64,000 nucleotides of DNA from Myxococcota bacterium. GTDB lineage: Bacteria > Myxococcota > Myxococcia > Myxococcales > Myxococcaceae. The stretch covers positions 1 to 64,000 of the forward strand of contig JBMORE010000133.1 of NCBI GenBank assembly GCA_049322255.1, given 5' to 3'. Within the stretch, counting starts at the first letter, position 1. The number at the start of each line of letters is the position of its first letter. The notes under the pieces were generated by a model that had not been told where the DNA came from, did not search any database, and worked only from the letters and a program-made list of their open reading frames with translations. A program made the translations under genes and the position numbers. Shown here piece by piece: positions 3,266 to 39,675 of this stretch.

Positions 3266-3297
3266 CCCTCACCCTGCCCTCTCCCACAGGGAGAGGG
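3266..3297 (+). repeat. BoxC/REP-like palindromic element, copy 1
   Basis: CCCTCACCCTGCCCTCTCCC-ACA-GGGAGAGGG lies between convergent genes. Confidence 0.85.
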
Positions 3298-27848: not shown

Positions 27849-28083
27849 TGTCGCCTCCTCTCGCGAGCAAACTGGGCCGCAGGATGGTTCGCGACAAGAC
27901 CATCGCCCGTAGGTCGACTTCTGATCGGGCGAACGAGCAGGGGCTTCATGCAGTGGAAACGCTTGAAGACAGTTGGGGGCGCAACTCCACACCATTCTTC
28001 CCAAGAGGGTCATCAACCGCTGGAAACAACGGCACCTTTTGACGGCCAAGGGCTTGCTTGTAGGTCGTTTTCTGGAGGTGCCG

Positions 28084-29682
28084 ATGCCGAGGCGACTTCT
28101 CATGATGGCTCTGGCGGCGACGGCAGCGGGCTGCGAGGCCACGGCAGAATTCCAGCTTCCCGAAAATGGTGGGCCGGTGACGCTGCCGGCCGACGCGCTG
28201 GCGGGGGTTTCCGGAGCGCGGCGGCTGACCCGCACCGAGTACGACGCCACCTTGCGCGACCTGCTCGGCGATGCAACCAACTCGGGCTTCGCGCTGTTAC
28301 CGGCCGACTCCAACGACCCGTTCGACAACGACTACAAGACGCAAATCGCCTCGGCGATGCTGGTGGAGGCGGTGGAGCGGCTGGCGATCGACGCGGTTCG
28401 CCGCGCGCTTGCCGACCCAGGCAAAAGAGACGCGCTGGTGCGGTGCGCGCCTTCCGGGCCCGGTGACGCGGAGTGTTTGCGCCGCTTCGTCACTGACTTC
28501 GGGCGTAAGGCACTGCGACGGCCGCTCTCCGAAGAGGAGGTGACGGGCTACCTGGCGTTGCAGAGCTACGCGGTGGAAGCCAACGACTTCTACGTGGGTG
28601 TCGAGCTGGTGATGCGCGCCTTGCTCCAGCAGGTCGAGTTCCTCTACCGGGTGGAGCTGGGTACCCCCGTGGCGGGCAAGGCGGGCACCTTCCGCCTCTC
28701 ACCGTTCGAGCTGGCCACCCGCATGTCTTACTTCCTGTGGGGGAGCACCCCGCCGGAGTGGCTCCTTGATTTGGCGCAGAACGACGAGCTCCGTTCCACC
28801 GCGCACATTCGCGCCGCCGCCCAGCGCCTCGTCGACGACCCGCGGGCGACCGAGCGCGTCGACCGCTTTCACGCATTGTGGCTGGGCTATCACCAGCTGC
28901 CGCACCCGGTCGACCTGACCAACGCCATGCGGGCCGAGAGCGGAGCGCTGGTGAAGCGGGTGGTGTTCGACGACCGGGGCGACTACCTCGACCTGTTTCG
29001 TGCCACCGAAACGTACGCCACCGACGCCTTGGCCAACCATTACGGCTTGCCCGGCGCAGGCGGCTCCACCGCTCAATGGGTGAGCTACGGAGCCTCCGGG
29101 CGCAAAGGGCTCTTGTCGCACGGCTCGGTGCTCTCGGCGGGCGCCAAGTTCAACGACACCTCGCCCACGCAGCGGGGCATCTTCGTGCGCACCCGCTTGC
29201 TCTGTCAGGAAGTGCCGCCCCCGCCCCCCAACGTCGACGTCGATCAGATTCCCCAAAGCCCCACCTCGAACTGCAAGAAAGACCGTTACTCGGCGCACGC
29301 CAGTGTGGGCAACTGCAAGAGCTGTCACCAGAACATCGATCCCGTCGGCTTCGGCCTGGAGAGCTACGACCGCGCCGGTCGCTACCGCACCCACGACGAC
29401 AACGAGCCCGCGTGCCTCATCGACGGCCAGGGGGTGATCTCCGAGCTGGGAGGGTTCAACGGGCCGGCGGGGCTGTCTGACCTGCTCGTCGCCTCGGGCG
29501 GGCTCGACCGCTGCGTGGTGACCCAGGTCTACCGCTTCGCCATGGGCCGCCGCGAAGCTCCCGCCGATGCCGCGCTGGTGGAGAAGCTCACCGAGAGTTT
29601 CCGTCAGAAGAACCGCCCCTTCGCCGAGCTGCTGCTCGACTTCGTGGCGGACGAAACCTTCGCCTTCCGGATGGAAGAATAG
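28084..29682 (+). CDS. DUF1587/1595/1592/1588/1585 lipoprotein with CxxCH
   Basis: Motifs RRLTRTEYD, ELATRMSYFLWGSTP, TSPTQRG and CKSCH..IDPVGFGLE, with lipobox AAGC. Confidence 0.9.
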   Translation: MPRRLLMMALAATAAGCEATAEFQLPENGGPVTLPADALAGVSGARRLTRTEYDATLRDLLGDATNSGFALLPADSNDPFDNDYKTQIASAMLVEAVERLAIDAVRRALADPGKRDALVRCAPSGPGDAECLRRFVTDFGRKALRRPLSEEEVTGYLALQSYAVEANDFYVGVELVMRALLQQVEFLYRVELGTPVAGKAGTFRLSPFELATRMSYFLWGSTPPEWLLDLAQNDELRSTAHIRAAAQRLVDDPRATERVDRFHALWLGYHQLPHPVDLTNAMRAESGALVKRVVFDDRGDYLDLFRATETYATDALANHYGLPGAGGSTAQWVSYGASGRKGLLSHGSVLSAGAKFNDTSPTQRGIFVRTRLLCQEVPPPPPNVDVDQIPQSPTSNCKKDRYSAHASVGNCKSCHQNIDPVGFGLESYDRAGRYRTHDDNEPACLIDGQGVISELGGFNGPAGLSDLLVASGGLDRCVVTQVYRFAMGRREAPADAALVEKLTESFRQKNRPFAELLLDFVADETFAFRMEE

Positions 29683-29692
29683 GAGCCATGCG

Positions 29693-31174
29693 ATGAAGAA
29701 GACGCTCAAGCTCCATCGCCGCGCGGTGCTCAAGGGCCTGGGAGGAGTGAGCATCGGCCTGCCCTTGCTCGAGGTGATGCTCGACTCCCAAAAAGCTTTC
29801 GGCCAGAGCGCCACGCCACCCAAACGCTACATGGTGTTCTTCGACGGTCAGTCGCTGGGGGCCGACCGAGACACCCGCCACAACGACCTGGTGCCCAACA
29901 CCATCGGTCGCGACTACGACCTCAAGAGCGCCACCGCGCCCCTGGCCAACCACAACAACATCAAGAACGAGGTGAGCATCGTCTCGGGTCTGAGCATCCC
30001 GGTGGCAAACGGCGGCCCGGTGCCCGCCGCGGGCCGGCGCGACGACTTTCACGTTTCATCGCTCTCCCCGCTGCTGTCGGGAGTGCGCTCGCCGAGCAAC
30101 ACGGCCTCGGCGGGAGTGACCTCCGACCAGGTGGTCGCGGGCTTCCTCGCCGGCAACACCCCGCACCGCTCGCTCGTCTACCGCGTGCAGGCCGACTGGT
30201 ACCTCTCGGTGTCGGCGCCCTACGGGCGGGACATGATTTCCTACCGGGCGAACACCTCCGGCGGAAACCCGGTGGCCATCCCTCCGCAGACCAGCCCTCA
30301 GCAGGCCTTCAACGCCCTGTTTGGCGGCTTCACCCCTCCGGGTGTCGACCCGGCGGCGGCCGCGCGCTTTGACTTCGACCAGCGCTCTCGGCGCAGCATT
30401 CTCGACTTGGTGCGCGGAAACACCGAGCGGCTTATTCCCAAGCTGGGAGCGGCCGACCGGGTGCGCCTGTCCTTGCACCTGGAGGAGATTCGCGAGCTGG
30501 AGCGGCGGGTGGCGGCGATTCCTCCTCCGCAGACCAGCACCTGCGTCGTTCCCCCCAGCCCGACCGACCCCGCGCTGGGTGGAAACCAGGGCGTCGACGG
30601 CTCCGGCAACACCACCTACGGACAGAACCTGGGCTACAGCGGGGAGGAAGAGCGCGCTCGTGCCTTCGCCGACCTCATCCACATGGCCTTCGCCTGCGAC
30701 CTGTCGCGCGTGGCCTCGCTGCAGATGACCATGTTCCAATCGCACCTGAACATGTACCAGCTCACCGGCCAGGCCACCGACTGCCACGAGCTGGGCCACG
30801 GTGGGGCGCCCGGGGGTACCCTGGCCATCTCCCGCGGCATCGCCTGGCACATGAAGCACTTCGCCTACTTGGTGTCGCGCTTTCGGGACACCCCCGAAGG
30901 CAACGGCTCGATGCTCGACAACATGGCCATCGTCTACCTCTTCGAGGGCGGGCACGGCTTCGACTCGGGCGCGGGGGCGCAGAACAGCTCGCACTCCACC
31001 GAGAACATGGCGTGCCTGGTCGCCGGACGCGCCGGGGGCCTTCAGCCGGGCCAGCACGTGGTGGCCAACGGCATGCACCCCGCCCAGGTGCTCGTCACCG
31101 CGATGAAGGCGGTGGGTTACACCGCGAACACGTTGGGCGAGGTGACCGGCGACATTCCCGCCTTGAGGGCGTAG
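29693..31174 (+). CDS. DUF1552 domain protein (Tat substrate)
   Basis: Twin-arginine motif HRRAVLKG, IGLPLLEVM, AFACDLSRVA and EGNGSMLDN. Confidence 0.9.
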   Translation: MKKTLKLHRRAVLKGLGGVSIGLPLLEVMLDSQKAFGQSATPPKRYMVFFDGQSLGADRDTRHNDLVPNTIGRDYDLKSATAPLANHNNIKNEVSIVSGLSIPVANGGPVPAAGRRDDFHVSSLSPLLSGVRSPSNTASAGVTSDQVVAGFLAGNTPHRSLVYRVQADWYLSVSAPYGRDMISYRANTSGGNPVAIPPQTSPQQAFNALFGGFTPPGVDPAAAARFDFDQRSRRSILDLVRGNTERLIPKLGAADRVRLSLHLEEIRELERRVAAIPPPQTSTCVVPPSPTDPALGGNQGVDGSGNTTYGQNLGYSGEEERARAFADLIHMAFACDLSRVASLQMTMFQSHLNMYQLTGQATDCHELGHGGAPGGTLAISRGIAWHMKHFAYLVSRFRDTPEGNGSMLDNMAIVYLFEGGHGFDSGAGAQNSSHSTENMACLVAGRAGGLQPGQHVVANGMHPAQVLVTAMKAVGYTANTLGEVTGDIPALRA

Positions 31175-32466: not shown

Positions 32467-33369
32467 TCAAAGACCTGCCACCGTCACGCAATCGGAAGCC
32501 AGGCCGACCTCCACCCCACCGGGCCAGCTCTGATAAGCGTGGGTGACGTTGAACGCTGTGTCCCAGCACTCGACGGCGGTGGCCCCGGCGAAGTTGCCCT
32601 GGAGCACTTCGACGTCGGCGCGGCCCGCTCCCGAGGAGAGCCACTTGCTGGTGACGAGCATCTCCAGCACGTCGGGGTGGGTGCCCTTGCCCTGAAAGCG
32701 AATCGACCCGGAGCGGTCGGCGTTCTCGCGGTAGGTGTAGCCGACCGAGCTCAGGTTCTGTTCGTTGCCCGAGGCGAAGGTGAAGAGCATCTCCACGCGA
32801 AGGGGGTTCAAATCGGTGAGGTAATCAATCTCCAGGGTGTCGAGGGCGGCGCTCTGTGGGTCGTCGATGCCGATCGATCGCCCCGCCCGGAAAGAGAGCT
32901 CGATGTGCCCGCGGCCCTTGGTGAGCTGGGCGGCCGACCGGAGGTTGCCGGTGAGCAGCGCGGTCCACGCGCTTTGTGTCTGCGGTCTGGCCTCGATGAC
33001 GAAGAGAAAGGTCTCCTCGTCGATCTTGGTCATCACGATACGTGCCTCGACGCCGGGGTGCTTTTCGTCGGGGAAGGGGCCCCAGGTGCGCCGGTTCGCC
33101 TCCCGCCGGGTGGGAGGTACCTGGCGGACGAGCTCCGCCAGCCCGAGAATGCGGTCGAGCAGCCCGTTGAAGTCGTTCGAGGCTTTGCGGGTGTCGGTGT
33201 ACGCCTTGGACGGCTCACCTCCCAGGCCGCTCTGGCTGCCGTCCACCGGCAGCTTGGAGGCGAGGTCGGCCTTCGCCGGCAGGGCGTTGACGAACTCGAT
33301 GTCCTGGTTCGACCAGTTGCCCCCGCAGGCGGCGAGGAGGACGGCGCAGACGAAAGGGACGCGGCGCAT
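32467..33369 (-). CDS. Lipoprotein, paralogue of 36433-37410
   Basis: Lipobox LAAC. Shared motifs WGP, GAGRADV and ECWD. Confidence 0.8.
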   Translation of the reverse strand: MRRVPFVCAVLLAACGGNWSNQDIEFVNALPAKADLASKLPVDGSQSGLGGEPSKAYTDTRKASNDFNGLLDRILGLAELVRQVPPTRREANRRTWGPFPDEKHPGVEARIVMTKIDEETFLFVIEARPQTQSAWTALLTGNLRSAAQLTKGRGHIELSFRAGRSIGIDDPQSAALDTLEIDYLTDLNPLRVEMLFTFASGNEQNLSSVGYTYRENADRSGSIRFQGKGTHPDVLEMLVTSKWLSSGAGRADVEVLQGNFAGATAVECWDTAFNVTHAYQSWPGGVEVGLASDCVTVAGL

Positions 33370-33378
33370 GGAAGACTC

Positions 33379-35025
33379 CTAAAGCTCGTAGCTCAAGAGC
33401 GTGCCGAGCTCGAGGTAACCGAAGTTCCTCGTCTCGTCGATGTTGTACAGGAGATAGTGCAAGCGGGCGCGGCCGGTGAGGCCGAAGCGCTGGGTGAGGC
33501 GCCACTTCACCCCGGCCAAAAGGCCGGGGCTCAAGGTGTAGAAGACTTGGCGGGGGAGGCGAGCGCCAGGGAAGTCGCGCGACATCAAGTGAATACCCAG
33601 GCGGCCGCCGACGAAGGGCACCCAGGAGCCCTCCGGCCACTCGGCAAGGAGCGAGCCGCCCACCGAGAGTTGCGAGTAGCGGTAGGGCAACTCCTGCACG
33701 CTACCCACCGAAAGCCGCCCGCTACTCCCCCCCAGGAGCACGTCCCCCCCCAGCGACCAGCCGCGGCCGAAGAAGTTGTGTGACAGCGCCTCCAGGCCGA
33801 CGAGCGTCGCCGAGGGGAACAGCCCGCCGCTGCTCGACGGCGCATCGAAGACCGCCTGGAAGGTGCCGGTGACGCCCAAGCTCAAGTGCTGCGCGTAGAG
33901 AAGGCTGCGCTCCGGCCCTTTCATCGGGTCGTCGGCGAAGGCCACGTCTCGTAACGAGCCCTCGTCGACTCGCACCACCTTCCCGGCGCCGACCTCCACC
34001 TTGCCCACCCGCAGCCGGTCGGCGAGCCGGCGCTTGAGGAAGTAAGTGCCGGGGCTGAGCGCGATGCGTCGCTCGGCGCCCGCGGCCTTCACCACCTCGG
34101 CGCTCATGAAGCCCCGCTCGTCGACCACGTAGTAGGAGCCCGCGGGGGCCTCGGCGGGGAAGAGGAGCCCCTCGCGGCGCTCGGCCACGTCGGTGAGCAC
34201 CACGTCTCCGTTGCCTGCCAGGTCGTAGCTGAAGGTGGGGTGCTGCGCGCCCGCGGCGCTCTCGGCGGTGTCCGCCACGGTGCGGTCGTAGGCGTAGGCG
34301 TACGCTTCGGAGAGGCTCACCCGGCCATCGCCCGAACGGTCGGCGTCGCCGAGCATCGCGCTCGCCAGGTGGTGGGAAAAGTAACTGCCCCCGATGAGGT
34401 CGGACTCCTGCGAGTCCTCGTCGGCGGCGCTGGAAGTGAGAATGACCAGACCCTTGGCGGCGCGGGTGGCGTCCGACTCCACCTCGAACGCCGGTGCACG
34501 CCGTACCCCTTTGGTGCGGGTGAGACCGCCCGAGCGGCACGCATCGAACACGGCGATGCGAACGTCCGCCGGCGCTTGTGCCAGCCGGCCCTTGAGCGCT
34601 TCGAAGGGCAGCTTGCTCCTTCCCAACCGCAAGGCGCCGTCCTTGGCGTGGCCGGAGTAGTAGACGAGGAGCGCCGTGCGTTCACCGCGGCGGGCGGCGT
34701 CGCGCGCCTTTCGCTCCAGCTCCCCCAGCGCGAGGAGAAAGTCCTCCGCGGCGGCGTTGAGCAGGAGCGAGGCATCTTCGGGGCGCACCCCACCCAGCCG
34801 GGTGAGGATGTCGTGAATCTTCCGCGCGTCGTCACGAGCGTAGAGCAGGGGGCGGGTCCCTTCGCCGCCGTCGTCGTTGCCGGCGACCAGGGCGAAGCGG
34901 TGCAGGGGTCCCTGCGCGTGGGCGGGCGCACAGAGGAGCACCAGCCCAACGGCGAGAAAGAGGCCCCCTCTCTCTCTGGGAGAGGGTCGGGGTGAGGGGC
35001 AAATCTTCAAACTACCGCCCCTCAC
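33379..35025 (-). CDS. Exported caspase-family (peptidase C14) protein with a probable C-terminal beta-barrel
   Basis: RFALVAGN, His in YYSGHA, Cys in FDACRSG and QHPTF. Signal peptide ...LLCAPAHA, and an amphipathic beta-strand C-terminus ending SYEL. The exact start is uncertain because it lies in repeats. Confidence 0.9.
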   Translation of the reverse strand: MRGGSLKICPSPRPSPRERGGLFLAVGLVLLCAPAHAQGPLHRFALVAGNDDGGEGTRPLLYARDDARKIHDILTRLGGVRPEDASLLLNAAAEDFLLALGELERKARDAARRGERTALLVYYSGHAKDGALRLGRSKLPFEALKGRLAQAPADVRIAVFDACRSGGLTRTKGVRRAPAFEVESDATRAAKGLVILTSSAADEDSQESDLIGGSYFSHHLASAMLGDADRSGDGRVSLSEAYAYAYDRTVADTAESAAGAQHPTFSYDLAGNGDVVLTDVAERREGLLFPAEAPAGSYYVVDERGFMSAEVVKAAGAERRIALSPGTYFLKRRLADRLRVGKVEVGAGKVVRVDEGSLRDVAFADDPMKGPERSLLYAQHLSLGVTGTFQAVFDAPSSSGGLFPSATLVGLEALSHNFFGRGWSLGGDVLLGGSSGRLSVGSVQELPYRYSQLSVGGSLLAEWPEGSWVPFVGGRLGIHLMSRDFPGARLPRQVFYTLSPGLLAGVKWRLTQRFGLTGRARLHYLLYNIDETRNFGYLELGTLLSYEL

Positions 35026-35052
35026 CCTTTCCCTCTCCCAGAGGGAGAGGGG
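34965..35052. repeat. Inverted pair of BoxC/REP-like elements (copies 5 and 6)
   Basis: Copies at 34965-34999 (minus orientation) and 35018-35052 (plus orientation), at the anti-sigma/caspase junction. Confidence 0.85.
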
Positions 35053-35815
35053 ATTTGAGGAACATGCGGTGGAACTGCTCTCCCGGGACGTCGATGCGCT
35101 TCACCTTCGACAGGTCGCCTTTTGCCTGCTCGAAGGCCTTCCGGGTCGCGCGCAAGACCGCCTCGACCTCCAGTGGCTCGTCGCTCAAGACGACGATGAG
35201 CTGCTCGCTGCCTGGGCCGACGAATTCGAAGCTGCCCGGAAGGTACTGGGTGCCGCCGCCCAGGGCAGGAAGGCTTGGGCCCGCCTCGGGGTAGACGGGG
35301 CTGACCTCGCCGCGATCGTCGATCGCCACGGCCAAGACGAAGCGCCGCTCCCCGGCCTGGTACCCGATGCGCACCCGCTCCCCGGGCCCAAGCAGCTCCG
35401 CTGTCCCGGCGGCGGTGACCCGGGTGGGCGCACCTTCGGGCCCGCCCACGACCACGTCGATGCCCGCGCCGCCCTTGGTGCGGTTGGGCCTAAGCTGGTT
35501 GTTGTCGATGAGCGACTGCGCGGCCACGGTGAGCACCGCCGCGGCCGCCAGCCCCATCACCGGGTAGAGCCACCGCGCACGGGGGCCCTCCAGCCCGCGG
35601 GGAGCGCGCTGGGCCCGCTCGACGCCGGCGGCGAAGCGCTCGAAGGAAATCTCCTTCTCGAAGCGGCGCTGCTCGTCCTCGATGGCCTTGAGCTTGGAAC
35701 GGCAGACGCCGCACTCGTGGGCATGCGCCTGCGCGTGTGTGGCGTCGTCTCCCCCAAGCTCTCCGGCGAACAGGCGCCGCAGCTCGAGCTCTCCCAGGTG
35801 GGTTTGTGGTGTCAT
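35012..35815 (-). CDS. ZAS anti-sigma factor with a TM helix and a DUF4384-like periplasmic domain
   Basis: HAHECGVC matches HxxxCxxC. TM segment WLYPVMGLAAAAVLTVAA, then LGPGERVRIGY..AIDDRGEVSPVYP. The ATG overlaps the sigma stop. Confidence 0.85.
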   Translation of the reverse strand: MTPQTHLGELELRRLFAGELGGDDATHAQAHAHECGVCRSKLKAIEDEQRRFEKEISFERFAAGVERAQRAPRGLEGPRARWLYPVMGLAAAAVLTVAAQSLIDNNQLRPNRTKGGAGIDVVVGGPEGAPTRVTAAGTAELLGPGERVRIGYQAGERRFVLAVAIDDRGEVSPVYPEAGPSLPALGGGTQYLPGSFEFVGPGSEQLIVVLSDEPLEVEAVLRATRKAFEQAKGDLSKVKRIDVPGEQFHRMFLKSPLPLGEGKGEGR

Positions 35816-36339
35816 GGCAACAACTCCTGTCCGCTGGCGGCGGCGAACGCCAACAGTCGTTTGCGAATGGTCGGCACGCTGCGCTGCAGGAGTTGGGCGA
35901 CCTCCTCCAACGTCATCTCGTCGAGGTGGTAGTGAATCACCGCCGCTTGTGTTTCGCGGTCGAAGCGGGAGAGCAGCTTGCGCACCGCGTCTCGGGTCTC
36001 CAGCACCGCGGGACCGCCGTGGCTCGAAGGCATGCTCTTCTCCTGAGCCTCGAAGCGGTCTTTCCACCCGGCCTTCTGTGAGCGCAAAAGGTTCAGGCAG
36101 TGGTGGGTGGCGATTTTGGTCAACCAGGTGAGTGGCGAGGCCTCGGCGCGAAAGGCGCTCCAGTGGGTGAGCGCCTTGGCGAAGACGTCTTGCATCGCGT
36201 CCTCCGCCGCCGTCGGGTCCTTGAGCAGGTAGCAGCAACGGCCGTACACGCTGCCTCCGTACTTTCCGTACAGCTCGCGCAGGCTGGCGCGGACATCGGG
36301 TCTACCCCCTTCGAGGACCTCCAGCGCGGGGTGGCTCAT
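35812..36339 (-). CDS. ECF RNA polymerase sigma factor
   Basis: Region 2 AEDAMQDVF..TWLTKIATHHCLN. Region 4 MTLEEVAQLLQRSVPTIRKRL. Confidence 0.93.
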   Translation of the reverse strand: MSHPALEVLEGGRPDVRASLRELYGKYGGSVYGRCCYLLKDPTAAEDAMQDVFAKALTHWSAFRAEASPLTWLTKIATHHCLNLLRSQKAGWKDRFEAQEKSMPSSHGGPAVLETRDAVRKLLSRFDRETQAAVIHYHLDEMTLEEVAQLLQRSVPTIRKRLLAFAAASGQELLP

Positions 36340-36344
36340 CGGCT

Positions 36345-36400
36345 ACGCGCTCCCCTCACCCAAACCCTCTCCCAGCGGGAGAGGGGTAAAGGGAGCGCGT
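36345..36400 (+). repeat. BoxC/REP-like element, copy 7, with extended flanking arms
   Basis: Core at 36352-36386, enclosed by the inverted repeat ACGCGCTCCC / GGGAGCGCGT. Confidence 0.85.
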
Positions 36401-36432: not shown

Positions 36433-37410
36433 TTACAGGGACAGGGAAGAGTACTCCGCGGTGGCGAAGGCGCAGACGCTCTCCACCCCGTAGTTGAGGC
36501 TGGGGGCGAAGGAGGCGTTGACATAGCGGCTGGCGAAGTTCTCGTCCCAGCACTCGCTGGCGGTGGCGCCGCCCGAGGGAATGTCGCCACCCACCGCCTT
36601 CACGTCGGCGCGGCCCGCCCCCTGCTGGGTCCAGCGGCTGCGAATGGTAGCCACCTCGAGCGCCGGTTTGGCCGGGTCGTTGTCGAGGTTCTTGATGATC
36701 TTGAAGTCGAAGGAGCCGCCCGCGGCAGGGGTGGAGAGGTAGCGGTAGCTGGCGTCGACCCGGCTGCCGGTCTCCTCGTCCTTCACCTGCTTGAACTCCA
36801 CGTCGATGCGAATGTCCGCGCTGGCCGAGAGGCGCGAGTAGGTGAACTCCGCCGAGCCGATCTCCTTGCCGTGCTCCGGCAGGGTGGCCGCGGCGTCCCA
36901 GTCGAGCAGGAAGGTGCCGTTGCCGTAGTTTTCCTGCGGGTTCCCCGCGGCGTCGGCGGCGACTTTGTGCGCGCCCGAGAGAATGACCACGTACGCATCA
37001 TCACCCGCGTTCTTGCCCTTCCCCTCCAGGGTGTAGCTGTAGTCGTTCTCGGCGTTCTTGATCACCGTGAACTTGTAGGTGTTGGGCGAAAGCGCGTCGG
37101 TGTGCGGGCCCCACACCGCGGTGTTTTCGCGCACCGAGGTCGGGGGGTTGTTGACGATCGCCTTCACCAGCCCCAGCACCGCCACCGTGCCGGCGTTGAT
37201 CACCACCGTGACGCCCCGGGTGAGGGTGTAGAAGCCGGCGCGCTCTCCCTCCAGCCCGTCCTGTCGCGACGAGAGTGCCTGTCCGCTCGATGAGGGAACG
37301 TTCACCGCCACGTCCTTCGCCTGGGGAACTCCCTTGCGGAAGGTGTCGGCCCTGTCCACACCGCAGGCGGTCATCAGCACCGCGGTGGCTACTGCGAGAA
37401 TGCGCGTCAT
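36433..37410 (-). CDS. Lipoprotein, first gene of the ECF/caspase operon
   Basis: RBS AAGGAGA, MTRILAVATAVLMTAC lipobox, and motifs WGP, GAGRADV and ECWD. Confidence 0.85.
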   Translation of the reverse strand: MTRILAVATAVLMTACGVDRADTFRKGVPQAKDVAVNVPSSSGQALSSRQDGLEGERAGFYTLTRGVTVVINAGTVAVLGLVKAIVNNPPTSVRENTAVWGPHTDALSPNTYKFTVIKNAENDYSYTLEGKGKNAGDDAYVVILSGAHKVAADAAGNPQENYGNGTFLLDWDAAATLPEHGKEIGSAEFTYSRLSASADIRIDVEFKQVKDEETGSRVDASYRYLSTPAAGGSFDFKIIKNLDNDPAKPALEVATIRSRWTQQGAGRADVKAVGGDIPSGGATASECWDENFASRYVNASFAPSLNYGVESVCAFATAEYSSLSL

Positions 37411-37536
37411 GGTCTCTCCTTGAAGAAACGGCTTTGCCGGCCTCGTGCCGAAGGTTTCGCTGCAATGGACCCAGCGGCGGCCCAAAGTTGAAAGGGCGGG
37501 GAAAACCCGAGTCAAGCCCAGCGTTTGGAGATACTT

Positions 37537-39675
37537 CTACCGCCCCAACGTCCAGCGCTGGGCGTTGAGGCCGTCGGAGAGGCCCACCTCGAAGTGGCCT
37601 CCTTCGGGCAACCCGGCCGTCGGCAGCTCCAGCCGCCCGCCCTGCGCGTAGAGGGTGAGGGTGGTGCGGAATTCTCCCACATGGGCCACCATCGCATAGG
37701 GGAGCACCGCCGCATCCCACTGCACGCGAAGGCGGTCGCCCAGATGGCGCACCGAAGGCGAAGCCGCCGAGCGAAGCGGCACCGCCTCACGGCGCAAGAG
37801 CCGCCGGCCCGCACGGTGGATTTCCAGGGCGCGCACGTCCCCCACATCCGGCACCACCAAGCTGAAGAAAGCCTCGTCGACGTCGGCGACGCGCTGGGTG
37901 GCGAAGCCGTGCTCGGTGACACCGTGCGCGGTGAACAGGCGCAGCACGTACGGCCCTTCCTCGAAGGGGAACGGCGCCCCGGTGAAGCGTTGCAAAGGCT
38001 TCAAGGAGACGCCTTTGGCGTCGATGCGGCCGGCGATGAGCAACTGGGGCTGCGAGCCGCCGATGACATAGGCCTGCGGCGGCCGCTGCTCCAGGCGGGC
38101 CTGCGCGCCCTGATAGCTGTAGTCGGACACCCAGACGGGGTCGCAGTACGACATCACGTCATAGACGGAGCGGCTGGGGTCGATGAGCTGCTGGGTGGCG
38201 GGGTTGAAGCCCCAGGAGCCGATGCGGGCCCCGGGGTAAGGGTAGGCCGGGTCGCCCTGGGTGTTGCAGGGGGCATGGTCGCGGTCGAAGTTGTGACCCA
38301 GCTCGTGAACCATGGTGTCGATGGAGTCGTCACGGCCGGTGGCGACGGGAAAGCCGAGCATGCCGATGCCGGCGACACCGCTGAAGAAATTCACCTGCAC
38401 GAAGCCGTAGTAGTGGCGGCGGCTGCCGTCGGCCTGGCGCACCGAGGCGAGCTCGGTCAACAAGTCGCTCCAGCCCTGCGCGGAGAAGGCGGTGATTTGC
38501 CCCGAGAAGGTATACGGGGCGCGGGTGGTGGACTGGGTGCTGTGCAGCGGCCAGAACTGCCACAGCCGCGGGGCGAAGTTGGAGGGCACCCGGCCGGTGA
38601 GCCCCTGCTGAACGACGGGCACCGCGGTCAGATGGAGCACCGTGGCCGCGCCCACCAGCACCGGCTGGGTGCGCACGTTGTTCGCCTCGTCGGTCTCCGC
38701 CAGCGCGTTGGCCGGGTCGACGGTGACGGTGACGCTCGCGTTGGGTACCAGCCAAGCGTCGGGCACCTGGGCGGCGAAGGCCTGGGTCATGTCCTCGGTG
38801 GTGGGAAAGCTCGCCGGCCCGGCGAGGTCGAGCACGCCCAGGGAGGTCGTACCCAGGGTGGCCTCGGCGCGCACCGTGGTGACCGGCACGTTCGGCTGGT
38901 CGGAGACCACCAGCACGCGCAGCTGCGCCGGCTTGCCGGGGATGAGCTTCAAGTCCGGCTTCACCACCGTCTGTGCCCAATCGACGCGGGCCAGCCGCAG
39001 GTCGACTCGGAATTGCGGCTCGGCCGTCACCACCGTGGCCTTCTGCGCGGTGCCCCCGAAGGCGTCGCGCACCACCAGCGACACGTCGTAGGTGCCCACG
39101 GTGTCGAAAGTCACCTGGGCAGGGGTGCTCGAGGAGCAGCCATTCACCGTCAGGTCGATTTTTCCATCGGTGTTGGTGTCCACCAGGCAGGTGAGGGGGT
39201 GGCTCTCCGGGTCGGAGATCGACCAACGCAAGGTGGTGGTGAAGGGAACCTGCCCGCGCTCCGGCTCGGCGACGAACACCGCGATGGCCGGAGCCTCGTT
39301 GTGGGCCAACACGGTGACGGTGGTGGCCTTCTCGCGGTAGGCGCCGTCGCTGTTGGTGGCGGTCAGCTTGACGGGAAAGGTGCCCGCGCTGCCGAAGGTG
39401 TGCGTCTGCAAAGAGAAGAGGCCACAGTTGGGCAGCGTGTACTCGGCCGCCCCGTCGCCGTTCACGTCCAGCGAGCAGGTCACCGGCTTGTTGGCGGCCT
39501 CACGCACAAAAAAGGTGCAGGTGGAGAGCATCGGTACCGCGCCCGCCGCGGGCGTGCAGGAGAAGGCCTCGATGCGCGGGCCCGCGGGGTCGTCGTCGGC
39601 GAGAGGGCGCCCCGAGCCCGAGCCGCAACCCCACGAAAGGAGGGTGAGCAAGACGACGGGCAGGTTGAACCGCAT
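37537..39675 (-). CDS. Lipoprotein zinc metalloprotease (M66-like) with PKD-like and CARDB-like domains
   Basis: HELGHNFDRDHAPC (HExxHxxxxxH), Met-turn DVMSYC, two PKD-like repeats and VDPANALAETDEANN. Confidence 0.82.
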   Translation of the reverse strand: MRFNLPVVLLTLLSWGCGSGSGRPLADDDPAGPRIEAFSCTPAAGAVPMLSTCTFFVREAANKPVTCSLDVNGDGAAEYTLPNCGLFSLQTHTFGSAGTFPVKLTATNSDGAYREKATTVTVLAHNEAPAIAVFVAEPERGQVPFTTTLRWSISDPESHPLTCLVDTNTDGKIDLTVNGCSSSTPAQVTFDTVGTYDVSLVVRDAFGGTAQKATVVTAEPQFRVDLRLARVDWAQTVVKPDLKLIPGKPAQLRVLVVSDQPNVPVTTVRAEATLGTTSLGVLDLAGPASFPTTEDMTQAFAAQVPDAWLVPNASVTVTVDPANALAETDEANNVRTQPVLVGAATVLHLTAVPVVQQGLTGRVPSNFAPRLWQFWPLHSTQSTTRAPYTFSGQITAFSAQGWSDLLTELASVRQADGSRRHYYGFVQVNFFSGVAGIGMLGFPVATGRDDSIDTMVHELGHNFDRDHAPCNTQGDPAYPYPGARIGSWGFNPATQQLIDPSRSVYDVMSYCDPVWVSDYSYQGAQARLEQRPPQAYVIGGSQPQLLIAGRIDAKGVSLKPLQRFTGAPFPFEEGPYVLRLFTAHGVTEHGFATQRVADVDEAFFSLVVPDVGDVRALEIHRAGRRLLRREAVPLRSAASPSVRHLGDRLRVQWDAAVLPYAMVAHVGEFRTTLTLYAQGGRLELPTAGLPEGGHFEVGLSDGLNAQRWTLGR

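Follow-up and report, generated by a model that had tools for sequence, protein, structure and literature searches.

Do a caspase-like protease and the anti-sigma factor encoded beside it carry one and the same cleavage signal, and what might such a signal be used for? The question is raised by an operon on the minus strand of a 64,000-nucleotide stretch of Myxococcota DNA (GCA_049322255.1, contig JBMORE010000133.1, positions 1 to 64,000). This whole stretch is called the window below, and it is contig C133 of genome G000. The operon has a conserved gene order, namely lipoprotein, extracytoplasmic function (ECF) sigma factor, zinc anti-sigma factor, C14 caspase-fold protease and lipoprotein, and its closest relatives are in Myxococcota, mostly Myxococcales. 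An initial annotation had noticed the residues RTKG in both the caspase and the anti-sigma, and had read them as a shared signal for self-activation of the protease and shedding of the anti-sigma ectodomain. We found this interpretation, in which self-activation and shedding are predicted events, to be correct in the main, but mistaken about the exact motif and not complete. The signal is [K/R]-G, with the basic residue as the likely P1, and the sharing of this two-residue signal suggests that the protease may free itself and then cut the inhibitor, switching genes on.

A basic residue and glycine in three linkers

We observed that the reported match is present in both genes: the minus strand translates to RTKG at 34507-34518 in the caspase and at 35471-35482 in the anti-sigma. 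In the caspase it comes soon after the catalytic Cys (DAC163RSGGLTRTKG, where R170 is Cys+7 and K172 is Cys+9). In the anti-sigma it is just outside the transmembrane (TM) helix, with K114 lying 8 residues past the predicted helix 81-106. The caution given along with this observation, that a 4-mer match may be a chance event, was well founded, as 5 four-mers are common to the two proteins, while 2000 shuffles gave a mean of 4.6 and a probability of 0.985 for at least one. The literal RTKG was rejected as the signal, since Thr is seen in 22/173 anti-sigmas and 73/188 caspases and shared 4-mers are at the chance level. The match stands above chance because the sites are conserved, and not because a 4-mer is shared.

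The gene-context comparison covers Myxococcota genomes. The orthologue set comprises 80 close loci (70-86% identity). The family I set was made up of these orthologues, loci from 15 chosen genomes and one phylum search, giving 191 loci and 189 distinct caspases, with caspase identity reaching down to about 37-40%. Thirty loci from a class-wide tally were left out as a set, since they largely overlap the nearest-relative set. In this tally the family was present in 322/368 genomes of the class, many with multiple copies; the 368 include one unpublished genome (G257), on which no other result depends. For tree-aware tests, 61 family I representatives with <70% identity were used.

The caspase carried R-x-K-G in 80/80 close loci, and an anti-sigma match was directly upstream in each. 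Among the 78 orthologue anti-sigma rows covering the linker, K114 was kept in 78/78, G115 in 76 and R112 in 68. Across family I, the position after the catalytic Cys (site 1) was K in 184 and R in 4, followed by G in 188/188. The anti-sigma position (site 3) was K in 144, R in 25, M in 3 and G in 1 of 173 (K/R in 169/173), with G next in 171/173, and G115 was the sole invariant anti-sigma column in the 61 representatives. A site that the initial annotation had overlooked, K369-G370 of the caspase (site 2), was K in 158 and R in 24 of 184 (K/R in 182/184), with G next in 183/184.

The aligned parts of both proteins contain 11 K-G/R-G dipeptides in all. Only those at the three sites were kept in at least 95% of 102 homologs (102, 97 and 98/102), and the next was kept in 53/102. 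The R-K-G of lipoprotein 1, tried as a fourth site, was not conserved. Co-evolution of Arg at P3 was likewise considered; the raw counts in the 61 representatives (26/23 concordant, 10/2 discordant; Fisher p 4e-7) gave a median p of 0.5-1 with independent tree pairs, leaving it unproven. A profile search with an E limit of 1e-30 yielded 4,820 clusters. In its 150 best hits minus P0003 (149 rows), site 3 had K in 147 and G in 146, a count that favours the motif, since the profile contained it. P0003, an anti-sigma homolog of 758 residues, has four ectodomain (DUF4384-type) copies in tandem and lacks K-G beyond the TM helix.

All three sites fall in low-confidence coil of the structural models, the site 1 loop having a pLDDT of 53-58 in the AlphaFold2 (AF2) model of the caspase. 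The post-TM linker of the anti-sigma varies widely in length and sequence among orthologues. In the anti-sigma model, confidence is lowest at residues 110-112, and the immunoglobulin-like (Ig-like) domain starts only at about 115-118, so that a cut after K114 would take off the whole domain.

The anti-sigma is a zinc anti-sigma factor (ZAS), with H-x3-C-x2-C (H31, C35 and C38 kept in 76/77, 77/77 and 77/77), a single TM helix, and coupling of its gene with that of the ECF sigma. Its ectodomain matched DUF4384 (PF14326) weakly (E 0.0009, 19.7 bits vs a cut-off of 27). Fold comparison of the anti-sigma gave RslA (Z 6.0), in keeping with a ZAS, and Ig-like sandwiches (Z 6-8.7); no distinct solved-fold match was found for the ectodomain, the best (Z 8.7) being generic Ig-like.

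The caspase has a catalytic domain (about 43-280, with H126 and C163), an Ig-like domain (about 286-361) and an 8-stranded beta-barrel (about 380-547). The AF2 model (pLDDT 91) shows eight long strands in addition to the catalytic domain and a small beta domain; the barrel matched OmpA and NspA, and the rest matched MALT1, caspases and metacaspases (including Yca1). The catalytic His was kept in 189/189 and the Cys in 188/188 family I caspases. By inspection, there is a signal peptide with a basic start, a hydrophobic core and A-H-A. With the architecture as modelled, the enzyme would be exported and held on the periplasmic side by its C-terminal outer-membrane barrel.

In the two families (the second is described below), D66 and D161 are each kept in 138/140, and site 1 is K/R in 139/140. 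The S1 pocket is predicted to be acidic, as in C14 enzymes with a basic P1. A basic P1 is preferred by characterised non-animal C14 members (PMC5756287; this and all other sources are cited from the available part of their text), with one exception, a putative Asp site (bioRxiv 2025.11.14.688446). No pocket column convincingly tracked K vs R. Catalytically dead homologs were sought as a control; none that was intact was found in either family set, and one broken locus (L310) has lost site 1. A complex prediction of caspase 39-360 with anti-sigma 102-255 scored 0.26 vs a mark of 0.32, and was not used either way.

Lysine and arginine across two families

Weak hits of about 30-40% identity formed a second family with the same gene order. 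Family II comprises 140 loci, with 122 distinct caspases, 101 anti-sigmas and 76 representatives. Site 1 was R in 106, K in 15 and C in 1 of 122, with Gly next in 106. Site 2 was R in 103, K in 17 and a gap in 2 (K/R in 120/122), with Gly next in 113, and site 3 was R in 84 and K in 17 of 101, followed by Gly in 89 and Ser in 11.

We observed that sites 1 and 3 switch jointly between K and R. The 76 family II representatives were R/R in 64, K/K in 9, R/K in 3 and K/R in 0, and in families I and II together the P1 residues of the two sites agreed in 128/136 representative pairs (<70% identity). As a rule, family II has Arg at all three sites, while a nested clade carries Lys at each of them. 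The K/K rows of family II all sit together in a clade of 13 rows, where one R/R/R row and mixed rows are found too. Fisher values overstate the association, since kin share states. With independent tree pairs, sites 1 and 3 changed in the same direction 1.3-3.0 times and in the opposite direction 0.0 times. The corresponding figures for family II at sites 2 and 3 were 1.0 and 0.1. Independent pairs on starred branches numbered only 2-6.

Because the K/R choice is loose within family I, chiefly at site 2, the enzymes probably tolerate either residue, with a bias that differs between clades. Genome G000 itself has four caspases of this kind, of both the K-type and the R-type. The earlier proposal of one recognition signal at both places is thus backed by the conservation, the joint K/R switch and the acidic S1 pocket, with the correction that the signal is [K/R]-G and not R-T-K-G.

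A proposed order of cleavage and its rivals

We consider it rather likely that cleavage after K/R by a barrel-anchored periplasmic caspase has three roles: maturation of the enzyme, its release from the anchor, and the site-1 cut of the anti-sigma. This is supported because the three sites are kept in otherwise variable linkers, while the other 8 K-G/R-G dipeptides are not. The acidic S1 pocket of the caspase would recognise [K/R]-G. On an inducing signal, the caspase would be cut after K172, leading to maturation of the post-Cys loop, and after K369, freeing the catalytic unit from the barrel. The freed unit would cut the anti-sigma after K114, taking the whole Ig-like ectodomain off and leaving a short periplasmic stub. 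An RseP-type site-2 protease would complete the processing, and the freed sigma would transcribe the operon from the upstream promoter. In this scheme we infer every cleavage, the order of cleavages, the inducing signal and the RseP step. The features actually observed are three conserved sites lying in flexible linkers, K and R switching jointly, an acidic pocket, the operon, a promoter-like motif and genomic M50 proteases. The last of these is a weak point, since the two full-length M50 matches over the cut-off in this genome have counterparts in 14/14 control genomes.

A bolder reading is somewhat less likely than not. The system could be a trans-envelope relay without a TonB step, in which a caspase moored to an outer-membrane barrel would, after two self-cleavages at [K/R]-G, detach from the membrane and travel through the periplasm to its anti-sigma, which it would cut at this same signal. 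The Lys and Arg dialects would partly insulate the many paralogous operons of one myxobacterial cell.

Several observations weigh against cleavage at these sites by the caspase. The initial annotation had proposed, as a check, to test R-x-K-G for conservation and covariation in homologous pairs. While [K/R]-G is conserved, Thr is not and the Arg at P3 may be absent, and the covariation is non-significant when kinship is allowed for (no test at p 0.05; median p 0.25-1). Site 2 is R with K at site 3 in 13/61 family I representatives, and Gly does not follow site 1 in 16/122 family II caspases. Three anti-sigmas next to an intact caspase (L204, L206 and L207) have Met at P1, reading R-A-M-G instead of K/R-G; these are perhaps cut at the upstream Arg, or uncut. 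The specificity-pocket Cys of metacaspases is Ala63 here (Ala in 137/140), and loss of this Cys reduces the activity of plant and trypanosome enzymes (PMC5756287). Among anti-sigmas with no caspase in the DNA fetched around them, 4/6 retain K-G and 2 lack it, a mixed outcome for the idea that orphans lose the motif. The metacaspase of C. glabrata has, by alignment, T-K-G in its post-Cys loop, but the aligned K (about 253) is not among the mapped cuts (R307, K263 and R54), and basic residues are not mandatory there (PMC9622860); it was rejected as a precedent.

The same conservation and K/R switch would be equally well explained if the K/R-G segments only docked in the S1 pocket. Site 1 would then auto-inhibit, and the anti-sigma linker would be a pseudo-substrate that holds or inhibits the enzyme, like PCi on PCaspase, with the sigma freed in some other way. 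The Met at P1 in three anti-sigmas would fit with this, as would the Haliangium gene beside the sigma, which encodes a substrate and inhibitor of PCaspase (bioRxiv 2023.06.23.546230). We regard this as unlikely, however. Site 2 at the barrel boundary is left unexplained, and, judging from the models, an enzyme tethered to the outer membrane is unlikely to form a standing complex with a linker at the inner membrane that lies only 8 residues past the TM helix. It is also improbable, somewhat more so, that the dipeptides are structural, as a basic residue and Gly turn at domain edges or near the membrane, with an inherited or coincidental recurrence in three linkers. Shared 4-mers are indeed expected by chance, the raw association is inflated by kinship, and the conserved K-G of the fungal metacaspase loop is unmapped as a cut (PMC9622860). 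Against this, the three sites are in unrelated structural contexts of two unrelated proteins, all of them coil, and P0003, which has tandem DUF4384-type domains yet lacks the K-G, indicates that the domain does not need it. A joint K/R switch in two proteins is also unexpected from a structural role.

The sites might also be cut by another periplasmic trypsin-like protease acting upstream of both proteins, much as SAVED-CHAT activates PCaspase, where a second protease is required (bioRxiv 2023.06.23.546230). The retention of K-G in 4/6 orphan anti-sigmas speaks for this. We nevertheless think it very unlikely, since K vs R tracks the caspase clade, even for the K-type and R-type operons of one genome (C133 and C28), and the five core operon genes include no second protease family. 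The orphan anti-sigmas could moreover be served by orphan caspases with both K-G sites, which do exist (C98).

Operon, neighbours and related systems

The coordinates are collected in Table 1.

Table 1. Features of the operon and of related copies in genome G000 (positions are those of the window unless another contig is named)
Feature	Position	Strand	Remarks
Site 1, caspase K172-G173 (Cys+9)	34507..34512	-	flexible loop after catalytic Cys
Site 2, caspase K369-G370	33916..33921	-	linker between Ig-like domain and barrel; predicted release from anchor
Site 3, anti-sigma K114-G115	35471..35476	-	N-terminal edge of ectodomain; predicted site-1 cut
Anti-sigma	35012..35815	-	H31-x3-C35-x2-C38 zinc domain, TM helix 81-106, Ig-like domain of DUF4384 type in the periplasm (about 115-255)
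C14 caspase-fold protease	33379..35025	-	PF00656, 41.7 bits vs cut-off 21.4
Caspase start codon, probable TTG	35010	-	by inspection
D161 of predicted acidic S1 pocket	34543..34545	-	aligns with metacaspase DSC Asp
D66 of predicted acidic S1 pocket	34828-34830	-	aligns with metacaspase LRGCINDA Asp
ECF sigma factor	35812..36339	-	Sigma70_r2, r4_2, TIGR02937 above cut-off
Lipoprotein 1, first operon gene	36433..37410	-	lipobox by inspection; no Pfam/NCBIfam family
Lipoprotein 2, paralog of lipoprotein 1	32467..33369	-	27% identity to lipoprotein 1
Promoter-like element	37465..37493	-	TTTCAACTTT then GGGTCCAT; upstream of operon
R-type pair	C28:21982-24650		opposite strands
Orphan caspase	C98:12362-14251		both K-G sites
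Distant pair	C127:57260-60301		anti-sigma reads K-A
Orphan sigma/anti-sigma pair	C194:42915-44239		near contig end

A bipartite motif of fixed spacing was seen 5' of lipoprotein 1 in most of the upstream regions inspected, with the family consensus TTTCtgTTtt-N9-ccGTGTC. The pattern was found on the coding strand in 62/80 orthologous loci and once on the opposite strand, and the window copy (37493-37465) is the 4th-best weight-matrix match in the genome. It is probably read by the operon's own ECF sigma. Among the top genome hits, the motif is also 5' of three further genes whose products are apparently exported proteins or lipoproteins (G000 C35:18150, C79:13118 and C26:26047), and these, with the operon, are a candidate small regulon.

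The ECF sigma was found in 76/80 close loci, and its stop codon overlaps the ATG of the anti-sigma. The family of lipoprotein 1 was matched in 79/80 orthologous loci, and in nearly all close relatives the module is flanked by the two paralogous lipoproteins, neither of which belongs to a known family. Both are candidate sensors or outputs, and the barrel is likewise a candidate sensor. Window genes outside this lipoprotein-to-lipoprotein module were matched in 0/80 close loci. Directly upstream of the operon is a gene with PKD and an M66 metallopeptidase (37537-39675, minus strand), which is not kept beside the operon in the 80 relatives, and a DUF1592/PSD1-5 and DUF1552 gene pair (27973-31174, plus strand) converges on the operon. 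Genes for SAVED-CHAT or kinases were absent from the 9 neighbouring proteins scanned.

We also noticed a palindromic repeat resembling repetitive extragenic palindromic (REP) elements at 35019-35051, 36353-36385 and 3266-3297, and by eye at 34967-34999; across the genome, the pattern is matched 187 times. Where it sits at the anti-sigma/caspase junction, it lengthens the anti-sigma C-terminus by about 13 residues, breaks neither gene, and apparently provides the beginning of the caspase signal peptide.

One comparison is with the DegS-RseA-RseP system, where DegS sits in the inner membrane and the RseP step is one of regulated intramembrane proteolysis. There, as predicted here, sigma release begins with a site-1 cut of the periplasmic anti-sigma domain; DegS, however, belongs to the HtrA serine proteases and has a PDZ domain as its sensor (PMC8103513), whereas here a cysteine protease at the outer membrane, apparently self-releasing, is the candidate. 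Another comparison is with DdvS-DdvA of Myxococcus xanthus, a myxobacterial ECF sigma with a zinc single-pass anti-sigma, for which a caspase-fold cut of the periplasmic linker followed by RseP has been proposed. RseP processing of DdvA after ectodomain loss has been shown, but the protease there is a TPR-CHAT domain fused to the anti-sigma, and its site-1 cut is hypothetical (PMC11506125). In the present operon, there is a separate C14 gene with an outer-membrane barrel, a beta-sandwich ectodomain of 140 residues, and the signal is present three times.

Two caspase-fold systems that involve sigma factors share other features. The PCaspase/PCc-sigma/PCi set of Haliangium ochraceum also has a C14 protease that is encoded with a sigma, activated by cleavage and cuts the products of neighbouring genes. 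It differs in its activation by SAVED-CHAT and cA3, its broad specificity, cell killing, and a CRISPR/CBASS and kinase link (bioRxiv 2023.06.23.546230), whereas the caspase described here has a signal peptide and a barrel, with no CRISPR/CBASS-type or kinase gene among the core operon genes. In Craspase (Csx29-Csx30-RpoE), a caspase-fold protease cuts an anti-sigma-like protein in an interdomain linker, and one Csx30 C-terminal group is DUF4384; the protease, however, is of the CHAT family and is RNA-activated within a CRISPR complex (bioRxiv 2022.08.17.504292). As for the enzyme itself, metacaspases, the orthocaspase MaOC1 and the paracaspase MALT1 have the same His-Cys dyad and, as predicted here, an acidic S1 pocket, basic P1 and autoprocessing (PMC5756287, PMC9622860), and MALT1 also has a caspase followed by an Ig-like domain. 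Unlike these, the present enzyme has Ala for the pocket Cys, appears to be exported and barrel-anchored, and has a dedicated predicted substrate.

In the literature found, including the available parts of PMC8999054 and PMC8283722 and with thin coverage of subscription journals, neither the operon nor the [K/R]-G signal was described. The part of the PMC7826278 supplement that was available names DUF4384 for ECF25 only and no caspase, and later ECF groups may bear on this. For a link to the M. xanthus act operon, the literature search found no paper.

Bacterial caspase homologs are abundant in myxobacteria, mostly without known substrates. Here a substrate, three cut positions and the P1 residue are predicted to the residue, together with a reporter promoter, which makes a signalling, rather than a cell-death, role directly testable. 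We conclude that the system may be a new variant of regulated anti-sigma proteolysis and, if true, it would supply the step proposed for DdvA, in which a caspase acts as the site-1 protease.

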